A stretch of DNA of 64,000 bases from a candidate division Kazan bacterium RIFCSPHIGHO2_01_FULL_44_14 (GTDB taxonomy: Bacteria > Patescibacteriota > Kazan-3B-28): contig METB01000001.1 in the NCBI GenBank assembly GCA_001771185.1, positions 94,520 to 158,519 on the forward strand, given 5' to 3'. Shown here piece after piece: positions 42,623 through 55,168 of the stretch (the first letter of the stretch is position 1; each line of letters opens with the position of its first letter). Under the pieces are notes generated by a model, which was not told where the DNA came from, did not search any database, and was given only the letters and a program-made list of their open reading frames with translations. Both the position numbers and the translations under genes were made by a program.

Positions 42623-44314
42623 CTATGGAGCGCGAGGGGGTTCGAATGAATATCCCAGAGAATCAAGGCGAACAGCAAACTGCTCTAATGCTACGAGAAG
42701 GTTTCGTAGATACGACTGAGCAACGGCATCGGTGACTGAAGAAGATATGGAAAACAATAAATTGTCCCAATTATCACCAGTGCACATTGAAGGGTGGCGC
42801 ATGTATGGCACCCAAATCTCAATTCTAAACCCGAAATTCCATGGCCAGCCAGCACTATTAACTTGACTATCACGGATGAGATCGCGTAGCTTTTTTCTCA
42901 GTCGGCAATTTCGAAACAATAGCGACCACAGTCGATAGTCGACGTCGATACACTGCATTAGGCCGTGCAAATATGCTTTGACATACGATAACAGACGAGC
43001 TGTTTCTCGGTGAGCATAATCTCGTCTTTCTCGTTCGGCTACTCGCTTGTCCCGCTCGGCTTGTTCGGCTAGTTGCCTATCCCGCTCGGCTTGTTCGGCT
43101 AGTTGCCTATCCCGCTTGGCTTGTTCTGCCAACTGTTTGTTGTGTTCAACTCGCTCGGCTTGTTCGGCTACTTCTTTGTCTCGTTTGGCTTGCTCGGCGA
43201 TCCGTTTGGTTTTGGCATCCAGTTCGGCTTGCTCAGCAGCTTTTTTTGCTATCGCTTCTTTCTGTGCTAACTTGCGCTGAAGTTTTTGCCGCTTCCAACG
43301 AGCTCGTTTAGCTAAATAGTCCCTCACCGCCTTCTGATAATCGACAAACTCTTTATTAGACGACGAGGGAAAATCGCTGAGTAAAGCAATTGGGATACAT
43401 GCCTCATCAATGTCAATCGCCTTCTGAACTATGCCAAGAACCGTCTTAATCGACTGACCAATCCAAGCACCGTATAGTGCCTGCCCTAGCCAGTAGGTGG
43501 CATTAGTGGCGTCCAGCTTAACGATTATCGACGATATTTGAAACGCTTGCTGAAAATCGCCTAACCGATGACATGCTTGAGCCAGATTAATCAGTCCCCG
43601 CACCCGATGCCCGGTAGTGCGAGCACATTTTGTAGCCAGTTCAAAACTGCGCCTGGCTTCCGACCAGTTGTTGCGAATCAGGTGGATGTGACCCAAGTGG
43701 TAGTAAGCCAAGTAAGCGGTTGTGTCGTGCCTCAACGACTTCAGCAACTGTTTTTCAGCTAATTCGAATTCCTGCTGATAAAACCACAGTAGACCTTGTT
43801 CGATGTGTTGACGAGCGGTATTGGCAAGCGGGTTACGCAACACATCAACTACCTGCCGTCCAATGCTCACTAGCTGTGTCGCTGACCAGTTTAGAGTGAC
43901 TAATTGTTGGTTAGTTTTATCTAACTTGGTACCGATATAGCCTAACTGATTATTGGTTTTGTCCAATTGATGACTAACGTGGTCTAGCCGATTGCCGACA
44001 GCCATCATGGTAAGGTCAAGAAACTGAGCTACTCGATCAAGTTCACGAACAATGTCTTTAGTAGATTGACCGATGGCCAATTCCATTGACCGCCTAAGAC
44101 TGTTGATGGTGTATTCTATTTCTGAGGAAAGGGCGTCGTACAGATCGGATTGAGATTCTAGTTCGGACTGCAGGTTTCCCAACTGCAAACTCAGCGACTG
44201 GCCAAGCGATCGGAGGGCGGAGGTGGTATCCATCGTCCCCCGCTGTACAATGTTTTCCATCCCCCACAGGGGTTCGGTCAACACAAGATCTAGACGAGAG
44301 TGTTCGATGCTCAC
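42623..44314 (-). CDS. TPR-like / coiled-coil repeat protein (563 aa) with tandem RQLAEQAERD decapeptide repeats
   Basis: The central region is helical, TPR-like. The C-terminal part contains AEQAKRDKEVAEQAERVEHNKQLAEQAKRDRQLAEQAERDRQLAEQAERDKRVAE, encoded by a 30-bp tandem DNA repeat. Confidence 0.6.
   Translation of the reverse strand: MSIEHSRLDLVLTEPLWGMENIVQRGTMDTTSALRSLGQSLSLQLGNLQSELESQSDLYDALSSEIEYTINSLRRSMELAIGQSTKDIVRELDRVAQFLDLTMMAVGNRLDHVSHQLDKTNNQLGYIGTKLDKTNQQLVTLNWSATQLVSIGRQVVDVLRNPLANTARQHIEQGLLWFYQQEFELAEKQLLKSLRHDTTAYLAYYHLGHIHLIRNNWSEARRSFELATKCARTTGHRVRGLINLAQACHRLGDFQQAFQISSIIVKLDATNATYWLGQALYGAWIGQSIKTVLGIVQKAIDIDEACIPIALLSDFPSSSNKEFVDYQKAVRDYLAKRARWKRQKLQRKLAQKEAIAKKAAEQAELDAKTKRIAEQAKRDKEVAEQAERVEHNKQLAEQAKRDRQLAEQAERDRQLAEQAERDKRVAERERRDYAHRETARLLSYVKAYLHGLMQCIDVDYRLWSLLFRNCRLRKKLRDLIRDSQVNSAGWPWNFGFRIEIWVPYMRHPSMCTGDNWDNLLFSISSSVTDAVAQSYLRNLLVALEQFAVRLDSLGYSFEPPRAP
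43051..43140. repeat. In-frame 30-bp tandem repeat (2 perfect and 1 degenerate units, with further degenerate units on each side)
   Basis: cccgctcggcttgttcggctagttgcctat x2 exactly, then cccgcttggcttgttctgccaactgtttgt. Confidence 0.85.
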
Positions 44315-44539: not shown

Positions 44540-44863
44540 CTATACATTACCTATTAGAGCGAACTGGAAAAAGTATCGATTCAAAGATACCCATTCCGGA
44601 CTATCCGCAGTGGTTTGGCTTTGCCATGTCTGAACCAAAACTTCTCTGGCTCTGGCAATTTCTCGTAGGCGAGACCCATCAGTTTGGCTTTGCAGGGTTA
44701 AATCAATTAGTTCAAGCATTCGTTCAAAGGCCCGTTCGGCGATGGCATCGTCTTTACCTCGCCACTTGAGCATTCGGCTGACTTCACTACCAACATTGCC
44801 TAACTGTTGAGGTAGAGTTAGTTTAGACCAACTTTGGATTAGAGCATCTGAATGATGGTTCAT
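44540..44863 (-). CDS. Small hypothetical protein (107 aa), downstream member of an overlapping gene pair
   Basis: ORF overlapping the upstream ORF by 4 nt (ATGA). It is helical with no recognisable domain. Confidence 0.5.
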   Translation of the reverse strand: MNHHSDALIQSWSKLTLPQQLGNVGSEVSRMLKWRGKDDAIAERAFERMLELIDLTLQSQTDGSRLREIARAREVLVQTWQSQTTADSPEWVSLNRYFFQFALIGNV

Positions 44864-45204
44864 ATAATCAATTGTTTTACGATATTGATAATTTTTTCTT
44901 TTGTCTCTGTATCATCAACTCCACGGGAACGATTGTTTTGTGAAGGACGAATATTAATCATGGAATCGAATTCTATCCAGTCATCAGTTTGGATATCTGG
45001 ATAGAGATTAATACCCCAAAGATTGGTTTGAATGGAGCCCTGTTCTAATAATAAAGCCTCTTCATCGGCATGGAGTTCTCCACCGACCGCCATAATACCT
45101 TGCTCAATATCAACCACGCACTTAACTAAATCACCAAATCGTTCTTTGGCGATTTCCGTAAGTTCGGTTCGAGAAATAGGTTGAGTAATAATTCTGATAT
45201 TCAT
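44860..45204 (-). CDS. Small hypothetical protein (114 aa), upstream member of the overlapping pair
   Basis: The ORF start at 45204 is 32 bp downstream of R2 copy b. The 4-nt overlap with the next ORF fits a TA-like or two-component arrangement. Confidence 0.5.
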   Translation of the reverse strand: MNIRIITQPISRTELTEIAKERFGDLVKCVVDIEQGIMAVGGELHADEEALLLEQGSIQTNLWGINLYPDIQTDDWIEFDSMINIRPSQNNRSRGVDDTETKEKIINIVKQLII

Positions 45205-45240
45205 AAACTGGTTAAAGATTGATTATAGATAATTCTCGGA

Positions 45241-45330
45241 TGGCAGGGCAGACGGGTTGAGATTACGCGCCCAAGGAGATAAATTAAGGTTTTGAAAGGG
45301 TCTTTAGGGGGACGGGTTCATTATAGGACC
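45241..45330 (-). promoter_or_regulatory. R2 repeat copy b
   Basis: tggcagggcagacgggttgagatt...cccaaggagataaa...gggttcattataggacc; the minus strand carries ggtcctataatgaacc. Confidence 0.5.
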
Positions 45331-45409
45331 CACAGGGATAAATCTAAGCGCTACTTGACTGTTTACCGTATAGCGTGTAGAGTACAAGTATACACATGAT
45401 AAATACCTC

Positions 45410-45940
45410 CTATGGGTTCTGTCCCTGGGCGGTATTTTTCGTTTTAGAGCCATCCCCTATTTTCCGGGTAAGATTGTCCATATAGATAATCTTCTCCTTG
45501 GCCGTTTGTTTTAACAATGACGAGCAGGTCTTTTTGTATGGGCTTAAGACGGCTCGAAGTTTGTGGTTGTCGTAGAGATGTCGCACGAGAGAATAGAAAT
45601 CACCGTCGCTGGTAATAATCACGGCTTGGTCATATTTGTCGTAGTCCAGCATGGCTTGGAGCACTAAATCGGCGTCGACATTCCCCTTAATATTGCCGTC
45701 TCCGTCTGGGATAGTCGGCTTGAATTTCACTACAAATCCGGCTTTTTGGAAAAGATCATAGAGGTCATTATGCTTAGCAACATAGCCAATGAATAAGTAG
45801 GCAATATCAACTCCATACTTTTCAGCTAAGTAGCGACGAAATCTAACCCAATCAATCTTCCAACCCAATGACTCGATGCCCCGATAGACATTTTGACTAT
45901 CGATAAAGGCGTAGTGATTTTGTGGTAGTTTTCCGTGCAT
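45410..45940 (-). CDS. NYN-domain (LabA-like, PIN-related) putative ribonuclease
   Basis: AFIDSQNVY...DGNIKGNVDADLVLQAM...AVIITSDGDF is the NYN/LabA acidic-residue pattern. Confidence 0.7.
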   Translation of the reverse strand: MHGKLPQNHYAFIDSQNVYRGIESLGWKIDWVRFRRYLAEKYGVDIAYLFIGYVAKHNDLYDLFQKAGFVVKFKPTIPDGDGNIKGNVDADLVLQAMLDYDKYDQAVIITSDGDFYSLVRHLYDNHKLRAVLSPYKKTCSSLLKQTAKEKIIYMDNLTRKIGDGSKTKNTAQGQNP

Positions 45941-47788: not shown

Positions 47789-47921
47789 ATATTGATTATA
47801 ACAAAGCTTATCACGATGTATATGGAATTTGGCAGGGGCCATCCTACGCTCTAATGAGCTACGGAATGACAATTCCCTACAACCGTTCCATAGTTCTGCC
47901 AAATGGCAGAACGACGGACGG

Positions 47922-48127: not shown

Positions 48128-49762
48128 ATGAAGTTCATGGTCGATGAGAGTGTGCAGAAGTTAAGAGGGGGGTATTATACACCCCTAGATTTAGCAACTT
48201 TTCTTGCCAAATGGGTTAACGGAGTTAATCCCGAGAAGGTTTTAGAGCCTAGCTGTGGAGATGGGGTATTTTTTAGTGCTTTTGCGCATATTGGCGGATT
48301 AGCACAAGGGCGTATAACTGGGTTTGAGCTTGATCCACGTGAAGCCATCAAGGCTCGCACCAAAGCAACGCAATGTAAGGTGCGAGCTAAGATTCACCAA
48401 GAAGATTTTTTGGGTTGGGCCAAAAACAAGCTCGGAGATGGAGCTGTGTCATTTGATGCAGTAGTGGGCAATCCACCCTTTATTAGGTACCAATATCTCC
48501 CTCCAGAATTTCAGAGTCAAGCCGAGGCAATCTTCCGGACACTGGGTCTACCTTTCACAAAACACACCAATGCATGGGTTCCTTTTGTCCTTGCATCTAT
48601 TGCTCTACTAAGACCGGGAGGGCGTCTTGCTATGGTCGTACCAGCTGAAATTATTCATATCCCCCACGCTCAAGCACTGAGGACGTATTTGGGAAAAAGT
48701 TGTAGACGTATAGTAATTGTTGACCCAGAAGAAATGTGGTTTGATGAAACGCTACAAGGTACCGTTTTGTTGCTTGCCGAAAAACTGCATGATAGTTCAG
48801 ATCATCCTCATGGATTAGGAATTTATCCTGTCAAAGGGAGAGAGTTTCTATTACTGGATCCCGAGACTGTATTCATGTCACCAAAAGCCATAAATGGTAA
48901 AACTATCGAGGGTAAATGGACTAGAGCATTATTAGACTCTTCGACGCTGGCCTTGATAGATAAGCTAACGAGACACCCAAATGTTCATGTTTTTAAAGAC
49001 ATAGCGGACGTAGATGTTGGGATAGTCACGGGTGCTAATGATTATTTTTTGGTATCAGAAAAAACGGTTAAGCAGTTCCACTTGTCTCCTTGGGCTCATC
49101 CCATGTTCGGCCGTAGCCAGCAATGTCCGGGCATTATATTTGATAAGACCCAGCATCAAGCCAATATTAAAGGAGATAAACCAGCCTACTTTATTTGGTT
49201 CTCAAAAGATGAGAGGTTACAAGATTCTAACGCTCTGGCGTATATACAGCATGGGGAAAAACAGAATTTTCATATTCGATATAAATGTCGCGTTAGAGCT
49301 CCTTGGTATTCTGTTACTTCTGTTTATGCAACCGAGATTGGCATGTTAAAAAGGGCACATAATTTACCTCGTCTTGTACTCAATAAGATGGGCGCTTTTA
49401 CTACCGACACGGCATATAGGATTAATAGCCAGATTCCTGCTAAACAGCTGGTCGGTAGTTTCATTAATTCGCTCACGGCTCTGAGTGCAGAATTAGAAGG
49501 TCGTCATTACGGTGGTGGTGTTCTAGAATTGGTTCCCTCTGAAATTGAACACCTATTGTTGCCTATACCTGACGACACTGTATTCGACTTAGGAGAACTA
49601 GACGATCTTGTACGCACGGCAGATACTGAGCTGATATTGCGCAAACAAGACACAAGGATATTAACTCCGCTTGGTATTTCGGAGGCTGAACGACTTAAAC
49701 TTTTAACTGGTTGGAAAAAATTGCGGAATAGGCGTCAACGCATATCGCAACTGGAAGATTAG
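48128..49762 (+). CDS. N6-adenine DNA methyltransferase (gamma-class, TaqI/Eco57I-like) with a C-terminal target-recognition domain
   Basis: Motif X GGYYTPLDLATFLAKW, motif I LEPSCGDGVFF, motif IV VVGNPPFIRY. Confidence 0.85.
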   Translation: MKFMVDESVQKLRGGYYTPLDLATFLAKWVNGVNPEKVLEPSCGDGVFFSAFAHIGGLAQGRITGFELDPREAIKARTKATQCKVRAKIHQEDFLGWAKNKLGDGAVSFDAVVGNPPFIRYQYLPPEFQSQAEAIFRTLGLPFTKHTNAWVPFVLASIALLRPGGRLAMVVPAEIIHIPHAQALRTYLGKSCRRIVIVDPEEMWFDETLQGTVLLLAEKLHDSSDHPHGLGIYPVKGREFLLLDPETVFMSPKAINGKTIEGKWTRALLDSSTLALIDKLTRHPNVHVFKDIADVDVGIVTGANDYFLVSEKTVKQFHLSPWAHPMFGRSQQCPGIIFDKTQHQANIKGDKPAYFIWFSKDERLQDSNALAYIQHGEKQNFHIRYKCRVRAPWYSVTSVYATEIGMLKRAHNLPRLVLNKMGAFTTDTAYRINSQIPAKQLVGSFINSLTALSAELEGRHYGGGVLELVPSEIEHLLLPIPDDTVFDLGELDDLVRTADTELILRKQDTRILTPLGISEAERLKLLTGWKKLRNRRQRISQLED

Positions 49763-50904
49763 TCAATCTCGAGCACAAATCTATTCGAATCATTCATATC
49801 TCTGTATAGCGAGAGTGTACGTCCAATTAGATTTGTGCGAGCTATATATTCCGAAAACGGCCCCCAGCTGAGACGGGTCATTGCGTTTCTTTGTCTGTAG
49901 GTTGTACTTGTAGTGTCGGTGCTGTGATGAATATCCAGAGCAAGCTCACCACAGTACACGCCCTTTATTATAAGTTGAAATGTCGCGCTGGATTCTTCTA
50001 CATTACCAGTTGGACTAGGTGTCCATATCAGGTGGCTAAACACAACATCTCTAAAATAATGTCTGTGATCTATGTGGGTATCGAGAAGACCCTTGTCCAG
50101 GTTAATAGAGCCCGTACGATGTGTTTGTGCCGCTTGGGGAATATTAAGATCTCTTTCGGTGAGAGGCTTACTATCCCAGACTAGTTCAAGATTTGATGCA
50201 GGTTGGACAGGAACGTTCTCTATATTTTGATTCTGTGGGATTATTGTAGCTGCAACTATTTCTCTACGGAGGGGGGTAGTTCTGAGTTGTATACGTGTTA
50301 TAGTATCGTCGACAGACCTTGCTGTTACAGGGTGAGGTGAGGAGGTTTTTGATTCATCAAGTAGCCGACCACTTGATTGTAGATGAGCCAGTTCTTCTTT
50401 GGTGTTAACTAAAAAAATATGCTCTGGGTCGCAAGTCATTAAGTCAAGGAGTTGATCTTGGACATTCAAAACTATGTCATGATCTGCAGTAATATTCAAA
50501 TCTAATGTGAGTGCCAAACTAGACTCTATGTTATTATTCAGACCACCGATAGTGAGATTAGCACTTCCTATCACCATCCTTGCTTCGTTGGGACCTTTGG
50601 CAAAGTAGAGTTTGGGGTGAAAAATAACAGTGCGGGCCCCCGTATCTACCACATAGAGGGTCACTCCCAAATCAATTAATCTTTCTAGACCTTGTAGGGA
50701 AGTTATATCGTTGCGTATACCCACAAAGAACTTTGCCCTGTCTACGAACGGACGCAGAGCTTCTTCAATAAGGCGAACTCCGTCATTATTCACAAAGGCA
50801 ATACTGAAAATAATCTCTTCTATTTCAGGAGTTTCTAGCACTGTTTTTACTGCTTGAACATGGGTATCCGCAGTAAAACCTTGGAGGATAAAACGTGTGG
50901 GCAT
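49759..50904 (-). CDS. Phospholipase-D-superfamily (HKD) nuclease; putative BfiI-like restriction endonuclease
   Basis: FHPKLYFAKGPNEARMVIGSANLTIGGL is the HxK(x)4D...GSxN HKD motif in the N-terminal half. The ~200-aa C-terminal domain is a candidate DNA-binding domain. The gene is convergent with the MTase, and the 3' ends overlap by 4 nt. Confidence 0.75.
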   Translation of the reverse strand: MPTRFILQGFTADTHVQAVKTVLETPEIEEIIFSIAFVNNDGVRLIEEALRPFVDRAKFFVGIRNDITSLQGLERLIDLGVTLYVVDTGARTVIFHPKLYFAKGPNEARMVIGSANLTIGGLNNNIESSLALTLDLNITADHDIVLNVQDQLLDLMTCDPEHIFLVNTKEELAHLQSSGRLLDESKTSSPHPVTARSVDDTITRIQLRTTPLRREIVAATIIPQNQNIENVPVQPASNLELVWDSKPLTERDLNIPQAAQTHRTGSINLDKGLLDTHIDHRHYFRDVVFSHLIWTPSPTGNVEESSATFQLIIKGVYCGELALDIHHSTDTTSTTYRQRNAMTRLSWGPFSEYIARTNLIGRTLSLYRDMNDSNRFVLEID

Positions 50905-50939: not shown

Positions 50940-52220
50940 CTAGAGAGACCCTGACCCCCCTACCGGCAGCTTATCCGTGCCCTGTGTCTGACTGACGGAG
51001 GGTATTTGAGGGCTGACAGGAGAAACTTTATTAGATTCTCGAGGCTCTACCTCAATGGGTTGAAGTTGAGAAATCGATTCAACGGAAGCACCGAGTTCCT
51101 TGAGTCTTTCAACTTGAGGGAGCACCATACTATCTAACGAGCCAACAGCCGAATTGTATTTTTTAGTGGCACTTGACAGATTACTCCCAATACCTACAAA
51201 GTGTTCTGCAAAAGTTTTTAATCTAATTCCTAGGGTGCCCACTTGTTTCATTATTTCGACTGCATTTTCTGCAGCCTTGTGTTGCTTCCATGCATGAGCA
51301 ATTAGAAGTATCAAAGGCATGATTGTAGCCGGACTGGCTAACATAACACTTTTGTTCTGGGCTTCCCTGTATAGGCTGGGATCTTTTTCGAAGACGGCTC
51401 TGACCGCAGCTTCACCTGGGATAAACATAATGACGTACGGGATACGATTATCCAAATATCTCTGGTATTCTTTGGTAGATAATGCTTTAACCCGATTCTT
51501 AAGACTAGTAGAAAATAAACCAAGGTGTCTCTCCTTTTCCGCTTCATCAGTGGTCTCTACAGCCCTCATAAAATCTTCAAGACTAGCTTTAGAATCAACG
51601 GCAAGTTTGAGCCCCCCAGGTAAATTAATAATGATGTCTGGTCGTAATGAAGATTCTTCTCCGGATAAAGTTTGTTGAACCAGAAAGTCCGTGCCTTCTT
51701 GTAAACCACATTCAGTAAGAATGTTTTTTAAGACAGTCTCACCCCACCTCCCCCTCACCGGACTGGCAGAAGACAAAACGGCTTTTAGTGACAACGTACT
51801 TTGTTCAATTTTCGTACCCGTATCTAACACCCGTTTAATGCTTTCTCCCAAAGCCCCAAATTGTTCATTTCTCTGTGTTTCCCAGCTTGCAACTTTCTCA
51901 TTGACCGATTTAACTGATTTATCAATATTATCGGCTATATTTTTAAAGCCAGTCTCTTTATGCTCCAAGTCTGTATTAATGACTTCCCGGGCTGACTTAA
52001 ATTGCTCAAGAAAATCCCGAGAGTGCTGTCGTAAAACCTCATTAGCTACGGACTTAAATCGATCACTGAGTTCTTCTTCGGTTTTTTGTATTGCGGTAGA
52101 TATTTTTTGCTCCGCCACGATTTCGGCATCTTTTCTTGCATTTTTAATAAATCCGGCTATAAAATAGCCCACCAGTCCCCCCAGAACAAAAGTCGCGACA
52201 GGAACTAAGTAAAGCATCAT
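50940..52220 (-). CDS. rmuC: DNA recombination protein RmuC
   Basis: N-terminal TM plus coiled coil, then the RmuC core RGRWGETVLKNIL...LPGG...KASLEDF. Confidence 0.85.
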   Translation of the reverse strand: MMLYLVPVATFVLGGLVGYFIAGFIKNARKDAEIVAEQKISTAIQKTEEELSDRFKSVANEVLRQHSRDFLEQFKSAREVINTDLEHKETGFKNIADNIDKSVKSVNEKVASWETQRNEQFGALGESIKRVLDTGTKIEQSTLSLKAVLSSASPVRGRWGETVLKNILTECGLQEGTDFLVQQTLSGEESSLRPDIIINLPGGLKLAVDSKASLEDFMRAVETTDEAEKERHLGLFSTSLKNRVKALSTKEYQRYLDNRIPYVIMFIPGEAAVRAVFEKDPSLYREAQNKSVMLASPATIMPLILLIAHAWKQHKAAENAVEIMKQVGTLGIRLKTFAEHFVGIGSNLSSATKKYNSAVGSLDSMVLPQVERLKELGASVESISQLQPIEVEPRESNKVSPVSPQIPSVSQTQGTDKLPVGGSGSL

Positions 52221-52436: not shown

Positions 52437-52594
52437 CAGGCGATTCTATAAGATTCTGGTCGCGCTTCGTTTGCCAGAATGACCCTTCTACGCTCTGGTG
52501 AGCTACGCAGGGCTACGCGAAAGAGAGAAAAAATGGATCCCTGCCTTCGCGGGAATGACAAACACTACCCTCACCCGCTCGTTCTCACTACTCA

Positions 52595-52902: not shown

Positions 52903-53766
52903 TTAGACCTTCTTTACCTGAAGGAAGTCCAACTCGACGGGGGTTTCGCGGCCAAAGATAGATACCAACACTTTAATTTTACCCCGCTCTTCGTCTACTT
53001 CAGAAACAGTCCCGTCGTAATTCTTGAATGGGCCATCATTGATGTGGACCAAATCACCCACTCGTAAATCAATCTTGTACTTGGGTTCTTCGACTGCCAT
53101 CCGCTTGAGAATTGTCTTAATTTCAGTATCTGATACTGGGACTGGCACAGTGCCAGAACCGATAAAGCCGGTGACATTCGGAGTATTGCGAACGACATAC
53201 CAAGAATCCTCGGTTACATTCATATTTACCAGTACATAGCCGGGGAAAATTTTCTTTTCCACCGTTTTGCGCTTACCGGCCCGAATTTCAATTTGATTTT
53301 CTTTGGGGACTAAGACATCAAAGATTTTATCCTGCATGTCCAAAGAAGCAATTCTTTGATGTAAACTTTCAGCCACGGCGTCTTCGTAACCAGAATAAGT
53401 ATGTAGAACATACCACTGGCCAGGCCATTTAGTACTGGTAGTTGAAGCGTCCACGGCTGGAGCAATGGTTGGCTCTTCTTGAACATCATCGTCCTCTTCT
53501 TCGGCTTCCACAACCGATTCGGTTACGTCAGTTACGGTATCAGGAACTGTCTCTTCTTCGATATCGACTGCAGGGACTTCTTCGGCGACCGGCTCTGGAT
53601 TAGCGTCTTCTGCTGGAACTGCATTGTCCCCCACTACCTCCATAGGAGTTTCTTCCTCCTTCGCCAAGGATTCCTCCTGCGTTAAAACTTCAGAGGACTC
53701 ATGGTCGGAGGGCTGCACCTCTGGCTTGTCTGGTTGAATTGATTGATCTTGGTCTTGGTCGGTCAT
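52903..53766 (-). CDS. nusG: Transcription termination/antitermination factor NusG with a ~110-aa acidic N-terminal extension
   Basis: The NGN domain is [18 protein letters not shown] and the KOW is [21 protein letters not shown]. The N-terminus is a D/E/P/V-rich low-complexity stretch. Confidence 0.9.
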
Positions 53767-54287: not shown

Positions 54288-54701
54288 TTAACGCTTCGAG
54301 AACTGCGGTGCCCGACGAGCTCGTCTTAAACCTGGCTTCTTGCGCTCTTTGACTCTCGCATCACGGGTAAGTAAACCGGCTTTTTTCAGTGAGGTCTTCA
54401 TATCGACATCAAAAGCGACCAGTGCCCGGGCAATTCCGTGACGAATTGCATCGGCTTGAGCAGCGATTCCGCCACCAGAAACCCGAGCTGAAACATCAAA
54501 ACTCTTGGCCATGCCGGTCAATTTTAACGGTTCCATCACCACCTCGGTCAAATGGGAAGGATTGAAATACTTCTCCCCTTTTTGATTGTTAACCACTAAC
54601 TTACCGTCTTTCCCTTTGTATAACCGCACCCGCGCAGTAGCGGTTTTGCGGCGACCAGTGCCATAGAAATATTGTCCAGTAAAAACAGTTGAACTCTCCA
54701 T
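54288..54701 (-). CDS. rpsI: 30S ribosomal protein S9
   Basis: [15 protein letters not shown] near the N-terminus; C-terminus ...[12 protein letters not shown]. Confidence 0.92.
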
Positions 54702-54733
54702 TAGTTTGAAATTTGTAATTTGTAATTTGACAT

Positions 54734-55168
54734 TTATATATTCACCGGTTTAGGTTGTTGACCAACATGGGGATGTTCGGCCCCAGCGTAAATCTTTAAC
54801 CGATTCATTAATACATGACGCAATTTATTTTTGGGCAACATCCCGTCCACGGCATGCTCCAACACTCGCGTTGGATGCTGGTCAATTAATTGCTGGGCTG
54901 TTCGGGTCTTCAGCCCACCGGGATAACCGCTGTGACGCGAATAGGTCTTGGCCAACAATTTATTGCCGGTCAATTTCACTGTTTCAGCATTAACAACAAT
55001 CACATTGGTTTTGGCATCGACTGCTCCATTGAATTGAGGCATGTCTTTGCCCATTAATAATTTAGCGATGCCCGTAGCCAGCCGTCCGAGCACCCGATCT
55101 TTGGCGTCCACTAAAAACCAGCGTTCTGGAAGTTGATGAGATGGAATATGTGGCGTTGCCTTTTTCAT
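54734..55168 (-). CDS. rplM: 50S ribosomal protein L13
   Basis: [25 protein letters not shown]; conserved position upstream of rpsI. Confidence 0.92.

Follow-up and report, generated by a model that had tools for sequence, protein, structure and literature searches.

A convergent methyltransferase and nuclease gene pair of a candidate division Kazan bacterium is a probable restriction-modification system of the BfiI kind

The window analysed here is a stretch of 64,000 nucleotides of contig METB01000001.1 from candidate division Kazan bacterium RIFCSPHIGHO2_01_FULL_44_14, with positions counted from its first nucleotide. Two convergent genes in it, a DNA methyltransferase gene (48128..49762, +) and the gene of an HKD-motif protein of the phospholipase D (PLD) superfamily (49759..50904, -), are probably a complete Type II restriction-modification system of two genes, with a BfiI-like nuclease. 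The evidence consists of the domains of the two proteins, the conserved catalytic residues of the nuclease and the linkage of the two genes across homologous loci, in which no third partner gene was found.

Gene pair

The methyltransferase open reading frame (ORF) encodes 544 amino acids; gene callers place the start at the second ATG, three codons later (48137), which gives a protein of 541 amino acids. From the ORF and its Pfam and PADLOC matches the protein was assigned to the gamma class of N6-adenine DNA methyltransferases, as an enzyme of the M.Eco57I type. The second ORF encodes 381 amino acids, comprising a PLD nuclease domain, a linker and a predicted B3-like domain, and is the candidate restriction endonuclease gene. 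The original prediction described a convergent pair with 3' ends overlapping by four nucleotides, and this is how the genes lie: in the shared TTAG (49759..49762), TAG is the stop codon on the forward strand and TAA that on the reverse strand. Judged by their profile matches and many homologs, both ORFs are real genes and not chance ORFs. The G+C content of the pair (0.42-0.46) equals that of the flanks.

Domain composition of the two proteins

The methyltransferase matched the Pfam families M_Eco57I_C (PF22837, 6.5e-83), N6_Mtase (PF02384, 1.1e-12) and Eco57I (PF07669, 1.1e-11), and the PADLOC profile for Type II methyltransferases (MTase_II, PDLC03267) spanned its residues 1-538 at 1.7e-185. 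M.TaqI was the closest relative in a search against solved structures (6e-09). The catalytic half (residues 1-258; 48128..48901, +) aligns with residues 15-187 of M.TaqI and carries motif X (GGYYTP), motif I (EPSCGDG) and motif IV (NPPF), all readable in the translation. It is followed by the target-recognition half (residues 259-526; 48902..49705, +), which is the M_Eco57I_C domain. A recognition domain that follows motifs in the order X-I-IV is the arrangement of the gamma class. By these sequence features the protein belongs to the M.Eco57I-like gamma-class N6-adenine enzymes, in agreement with the class first proposed for it from its motifs.

The N-terminal part of the nuclease (residues 1-186; 50347..50904, -) is a PLD nuclease domain with one HKD motif per chain. 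Its translation shows FHPKLYF...GSANLT...NNNIE, and the residues H96-x-K98...N116...E127 of this motif (50524..50619, -) align on H105, K107, N125 and E136 of BfiI, which have been named as catalytic (PMC4081073). All four were invariant in 64 of 64 nuclease homologs. Against solved structures the best match was BfiI (2c1l), at 4.9e-4 with the single sequence and at 4.6e-9 with a profile of the 64 homologs; the PLD domain of SauUSI was matched at 2.5e-6 and R.NgoAVII weakly, at 0.16 with the same profile. Family profiles covered only part of the protein. The Pfam family PLDc_2 scored 23.3 bits over residues 71-132, short of its cut-off of 27, the PADLOC REase_II profiles matched residues 65-142 only, and NCBIfam gave no match to the nuclease and holds no model for its family.

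An AlphaFold2 model of the nuclease was built on the 64-sequence alignment, with a mean predicted local distance difference test score (pLDDT) of 80.8. It has three parts, a compact N-domain (residues 1-186), a disordered stretch and a beta-rich C-domain (residues 237-381). In a fold search with the N-domain the top matches were SauUSI (19.0), BfiI (18.9), Nuc (15.7) and NucT (15.0), with phospholipases and phosphatidylserine synthase ranking below these four. The best solved relatives are thus nucleases of the PLD superfamily, BfiI among them, as had been claimed.

The disordered stretch is a flexible inter-domain linker of about 50 amino acids (residues 187-236; 50197..50346, -), in which pLDDT falls below 50 at residues 187-199 and 223-232. 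In the homologs this linker varies in length and sequence, is rich in K, A and P, and exceeds 100 amino acids in some. A domain swap suspected at one homologous locus (L074; loci are designated by L numbers) was only apparent, the protein proving to be an ordinary member whose linker is long and rich in Ala and Pro.

The C-domain (residues 237-381, 145 amino acids; 49762..50196, -) belongs to no Pfam family and had no sequence match in the PDB. Most of it was modelled with a pLDDT of 80-92, and the loops at residues 251-280 with 62-71. A fold search returned BfiI-C with DNA (3zi5, 8.1), the B3 domain of FUS3 (8.1), EcoRII-N (7.8), VRN1 (6.7), RAV1 (6.5) and the B3 domains of NgoAVII (6.1) and UbaLAI (5.9). 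The predicted fold supports the assignment as a B3-like DNA-binding pseudobarrel, presumed to be the recognition domain. A C-terminal specificity domain had been anticipated, at about 200 amino acids; a B3-like domain is indeed predicted there, at a size of about 145. The C-domain has 475 representatives at 50% identity. Among the 150 of these listed it was always C-terminal and mostly in proteins of 370-430 amino acids, while the shorter proteins look like fragments.

Conservation of the gene pair

Homologs of the nuclease form 1285 clusters at 90% identity, and among the 120 clusters listed most have about 370-430 amino acids and cover 97-100% of the query. A genome scan with one genome per species gave 80 loci, from Patescibacteria, a Woesearchaeota metagenome-assembled genome (MAG), Alpha-, Beta- and Gammaproteobacteria, Acidobacteriota, Verrucomicrobiota, Planctomycetota, Nitrospirota and Sulfurospirillum. 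In about 75 of the 80, a methyltransferase gene lies directly downstream of the nuclease gene on the opposite strand, in convergent orientation, and these methyltransferases are 48-64% identical to that of the window. The pair was also found on small plasmids of Yoonia and Roseobacter. This linkage, kept on plasmids as well, bears out the proposed restriction-modification pair.

A four-nucleotide YTAR overlap was present in 44 of the 59 loci in which both ORFs could be delimited, and an overlap of 20 nucleotides in seven. The exceptions to the common arrangement were few. The genes are co-directional in L037. In L076, L077 and L079 only the N-terminal part of the nuclease was matched and the methyltransferase is absent; in L065 the nuclease match is truncated and the methyltransferase divergent in placement and only 34% identical. 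The nuclease is frameshifted or truncated in L053, L080 and L085, with the methyltransferase kept.

Genes flanking the pair are unrelated and differ from locus to locus, and clustering of ORFs over 86 loci left the nuclease and the methyltransferase as the only generally conserved genes. Two small ORFs upstream of the methyltransferase, both absent from the window, were minor exceptions: one of the ribbon-helix-helix type, seen in 12 loci, and a different one, seen in 10. No ATPase or helicase gene was linked to the pair across the 86 loci. Carriage of the pair by phages was not seen among 50,697 phage records. The two genes make up a conserved module, inherited and transferred as a convergent overlapping cassette.

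Some further details of the loci were recorded. In an Arenimonas MAG (L041, 8224-9498, -) a second PLD-family paralog of 424 amino acids, 26% identical, lies just past the methyltransferase gene, which thus stands between two PLD-type nuclease genes. In both candidate-phylum genomes examined, Kazan (window 54288-55168) and Parcubacteria (L001, 5137-5992), the cassette follows rplM-rpsI in the same orientation. In L001 it comes right after rpsI, and in the window a few genes lie between. The ribbon-helix-helix gene overlaps the methyltransferase start in the 12 PLD-type loci (e.g. L003, 8837-9079, -) and occurs also in Eco57I-type loci on plasmids of Xanthomonas and Mesorhizobium (L088, 2714-2908; L089, 2708-2905). 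It is probably a transcriptional controller common to both types of loci.

Comparison with characterised enzymes

To our knowledge, the characterised PLD-fold restriction enzymes comprise two lineages only, BfiI/BmrI and NgoAVII/CglI. A PLD domain combined with a B3-like domain has been described for both, and in this sense the kind of system is already known. PLD-fold restriction enzymes had been called rare in the original prediction; a 2014 review contradicts this, as it calls them 'far from rare' and counts over 40 putative members in REBASE (PMC4081073).

BfiI/BmrI (Type IIS, ACTGGG; PDB 2c1l, 3zi5) has the same composition as the window nuclease, a single-HKD N-domain with the same four catalytic residues, a linker and a B3-like C-domain. 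Both are proteins of about 360-380 amino acids without an ATPase partner. Identity to BfiI is about 19%, the likeness of the C-domains is undetectable by sequence, and homology over the full length was not found. BfiI, studied by Sapranauskas et al. in 2000, is reportedly accompanied by two cytosine methyltransferases, whereas the window nuclease has one gamma-class N6-adenine methyltransferase. Because the partners differ, the recognition sequence almost certainly differs from that of BfiI as well. The linker is also longer, about 50 amino acids compared with 29 in BfiI/BmrI (PMC2094064).

Other enzymes share some elements with the pair. Eco57I/AcuI-type systems (CTGAAG) have a methyltransferase of the M.Eco57I family and the convergent layout, but the partner is a bifunctional PD-(D/E)XK-methyltransferase of about 1000 amino acids and not a PLD-B3 protein of 381. 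Nuc of a Salmonella plasmid and NucT of Helicobacter are non-specific nucleases of about 150 amino acids, without the DNA-recognition domain and the methyltransferase partner which the window has. In SauUSI and in MtsD of MANTIS the PLD nuclease is fused to a helicase-like ATPase of superfamily 2 (SF2), with different recognition modules; the window nuclease has no ATPase motor. SauUSI is furthermore modification-dependent and MANTIS a four-gene system, and neither feature is found in the window pair. Membership of MANTIS, DISARM or MADS was ruled out, there being no ATPase or other companion genes.

Relation to Eco57I-type systems and recognition site

Plasmids of E. coli, Klebsiella and Acinetobacter encode methyltransferases of 541 amino acids that are 52% identical to that of the window. 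For those of E. coli and Acinetobacter the identity is spread evenly, the catalytic half being 52% and the recognition half 52-53% identical. The genes on the plasmids of all three are convergent to those of proteins of about 998 amino acids with the Pfam domains Eco57I and HSDR_N, and by their sequences these loci have the Eco57I-type layout, with a Type IIG enzyme and a separate methyltransferase. More distant methyltransferases on plasmids of Xanthomonas, Mesorhizobium and Lysinibacillus (33-36% identity) also partner Eco57I-type enzymes. The homologs compared that have the PLD nuclease as their partner were 57-64% identical to the window methyltransferase. Since its relatives pair with either Eco57I-type or PLD nucleases, one methyltransferase lineage serves two unrelated nuclease types.

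CTGAAG is the site of both Eco57I and AcuI (PMC4309577). Given that the window methyltransferase is close to those partnering Eco57I-type enzymes, the recognition site is possibly CTGAAG-like or of the type CTNNAG. The clusters of the plasmid methyltransferases bear generic names only, and an attempt to tie them by name to Eco57I or AcuI failed. Word avoidance was assessed by Markov-corrected counts of 6-mers in the window and in the 80 loci. CTGAAG was not depleted in the window (observed/expected ratio 0.93) and was depleted only weakly in the 80 loci (0.86). The most depleted hexamer in the 80 loci was CTCGAG, with a ratio of 0.41 and counts below expectation in 73 of 80, and with 0.91 in the window. 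This was rejected as evidence for a site: the word is as depleted in L076, L077 and L079, which have no methyltransferase, palindromes are low in general, the window shows no depletion, and there were no matched controls. The most under-represented hexamer of the window itself was GCCGGC (18 observed and 41 expected on both strands), which may reflect a different restriction system in the Kazan genome.

On the Lysinibacillus capsici plasmid pFN9A (L005, 5001-5435) a standalone protein of 144 amino acids is homologous to the C-domain of the nuclease (38% identity). It adjoins an Eco57I-type IIG enzyme of 1004 amino acids and an M.Eco57I-like methyltransferase with 33% identity. This protein may be a regulator or a remnant, and its position hints that the B3-like DNA-binding domain travels with the M.Eco57I-like methyltransferase lineage.

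Proposed mode of action and alternative explanations

The mode of action was modelled on that of BfiI (PMC4081073, PMC2853115, PMC3973309). The methyltransferase would act as a monomer, like M.TaqI and M.Eco57I, its C-terminal domain reading a specific DNA sequence, and would N6-methylate an adenine in the site, by which the DNA of the host would be marked as self. Since each nuclease chain has a single HKD motif, a composite active site would need a dimer, as in Nuc and BfiI, with the PLD domains of two subunits pairing to form it. The B3-like C-domains would bind the unmethylated recognition sequence, and by analogy to BfiI one dimer would bind two sites. The flexible linker would let the catalytic dimer reach and cut both strands, one after the other, away from the site. 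Cleavage would proceed through a covalent phospho-histidine intermediate, independent of Mg2+ and ATP, as in BfiI.

Several points weigh against this reading. Biochemical evidence for any member of this PLD-B3 family was not found in the libraries and literature searched, and the sequence similarity to BfiI extends over only about 85 residues at the HKD motif. Assignment of the C-domain comes from a predicted structure whose lower confidence (pLDDT 62-71) falls in the putative DNA-contacting loops. With the longer linker the geometry of cleavage may differ from that of BfiI. With a lone methyltransferase, either this one enzyme would have to protect the two strands or hemimethylation would have to suffice. 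Finally, no depletion of a recognition site was detectable in the window, either for CTGAAG (0.93) or for CTCGAG (0.91).

The main rival explanation is an ATP-dependent enzyme of the NgoAVII/CglI type. R.NgoAVII and R.CglI (GCCGC) are PLD and B3-like R-subunits of such enzymes, and the window protein would likewise be an R-subunit needing a DEAD-family helicase-like partner encoded elsewhere. NgoAVII and CglI are three-gene operons, and cleavage by them requires the DEAD-family ATPase that one of the genes encodes (PMC4267653, PMC5737866). No ATPase or helicase gene and no other third gene is conserved beside the pair in the 86 loci, and for this reason the explanation is disfavoured. The 64-homolog profile ranked BfiI far above R.NgoAVII, and the window nuclease has no match to the Pfam family RE_NgoFVII (PF09565) at E <= 0.01, with two homologs sub-threshold. 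We consider an enzyme of this type unlikely.

It is also unlikely that the nuclease is an inactive remnant or serves as a DNA-binding regulator, leaving the methyltransferase effectively an orphan in a host with a small genome. Truncated or solitary pieces of the family do occur, such as the 144-amino-acid C-domain of Lysinibacillus, the N-domains of L076, L077 and L079 and the frameshifted genes of L053 and L080. The window nuclease, for its part, is of full length, has kept all invariant and catalytic residues and is identical across 13 contigs.

A role of the HKD protein in DNA repair or recombination, together with the adjacent rmuC gene and outside restriction, was considered next. The rmuC gene (50940..52220, -; Pfam RmuC 1e-80) lies on the same strand with a gap of 35 nucleotides and could be co-transcribed with the nuclease gene, and RmuC domains are found in some defence systems (a PADLOC RTasRmuC match). 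In the direction of transcription rmuC precedes the nuclease gene; it had rightly been seen as adjacent to the pair, but had been placed downstream of it. A copy of rmuC stands beside the pair in none of 85 other loci, against about 75 of 80 for the methyltransferase, so that rmuC is regarded as an unrelated neighbour and not a component, and a joint role in repair as very improbable.

Still less credible is a modification-dependent, Type IV-like nuclease of the kind of SauUSI, the top fold match: the window nuclease has no helicase or ATPase domain, and given the obligate linkage to a methyltransferase, targeting the cassette's own methylation would be self-destructive. An enzyme of phospholipid metabolism, of the cardiolipin or phosphatidylserine synthase type and paired with the methyltransferase by coincidence, can practically be dismissed, as the protein has a single HKD motif in a domain of 186 amino acids like Nuc and BfiI, nucleases and not cardiolipin-synthase-type enzymes are its top matches by sequence and fold, its HKD domain shares the chain with a DNA-binding fold, its gene is strictly linked to that of a DNA methyltransferase, and membrane segments are not evident in its sequence.

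Significance of the nuclease family

The nuclease family appears to be large and widespread, of largely fixed architecture and uncharacterised in the laboratory. The last point follows from a C-domain without a Pfam family, PADLOC matches to the HKD region only, the lack of an NCBIfam model, database names that are generic ('hypothetical protein', 'phospholipase D family protein', 'HKD family nuclease') and a search of the literature in which no description of the family was found. It reaches from Patescibacteria and an archaeal MAG (Woesearchaeota) to at least five other bacterial phyla.

As a tentative proposal, which we hold to be rather doubtful, the family could be a third widespread PLD-B3 lineage beside BfiI/BmrI and NgoAVII/CglI. 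Its members would have one common specificity, proposed because the B3-like domain and the recognition domain of the methyltransferase are about equally conserved, and the methyltransferase lineage would have passed between Type IIG partners of the Eco57I type and this small nuclease. The nuclease would be an isoschizomer or near-isoschizomer of Eco57I-type enzymes at a CTGAAG-like or CTNNAG site, independent of metal and ATP, with a long-linker geometry unlike that of BfiI.

As a third lineage of this architecture, the family could provide a new metal-independent site-specific nuclease as a reagent or engineering module, with a different methyltransferase partner and a much longer linker, and a further case of how B3-like domains read DNA. 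It would also be an instance of partner exchange, in which one methyltransferase lineage works with unrelated nucleases. As regards the host, the pair indicates that the reduced genome of a candidate-phylum bacterium has kept an intact restriction barrier. No concept is changed by the system: its kind is known, and public databases already contain family members, generically named.

Other features of the window

A Pfam scan identified rmuC and a solute symporter gene as the neighbours of the pair. In an empty-site comparison with contigs that carry an identical RmuC, the places returned keep the same gene order. Signals of a controller protein, promoters or terminators did not rise above the shuffled expectation in the window.

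A direct repeat, GTAGCTCA-NN-AGAGCGTAG, is present at 47844-47862 and 52488-52506, both on the reverse strand, with two copies in 64 kb against 0.07 expected. The 4.64-kb segment between the copies holds the gene pair together with rmuC and tRNA-Trp. The repeat resembles a tRNA D-arm, had no match in Rfam or by ARAGORN, and each copy stands about 50-100 nucleotides upstream of a reverse-strand gene, that of the symporter or that of tRNA-Trp. Possible explanations are an att-like scar and a common regulatory element.

Elsewhere in the window, NusG (52903-53766, -; 287 amino acids) has a highly acidic N-terminal extension of about 110 amino acids, rich in E, D, P and V. An ORF of 563 amino acids (42623-44314, -) contains a central run of near-identical, heptad-like repeats of the type AEQAERD(K/R). 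Small genes are clustered just past the symporter (44540-45940, -); they encode an NYN-domain protein of 176 amino acids and a DUF5674 protein of 114 amino acids, and include two unassigned ORFs of 107 amino acids.

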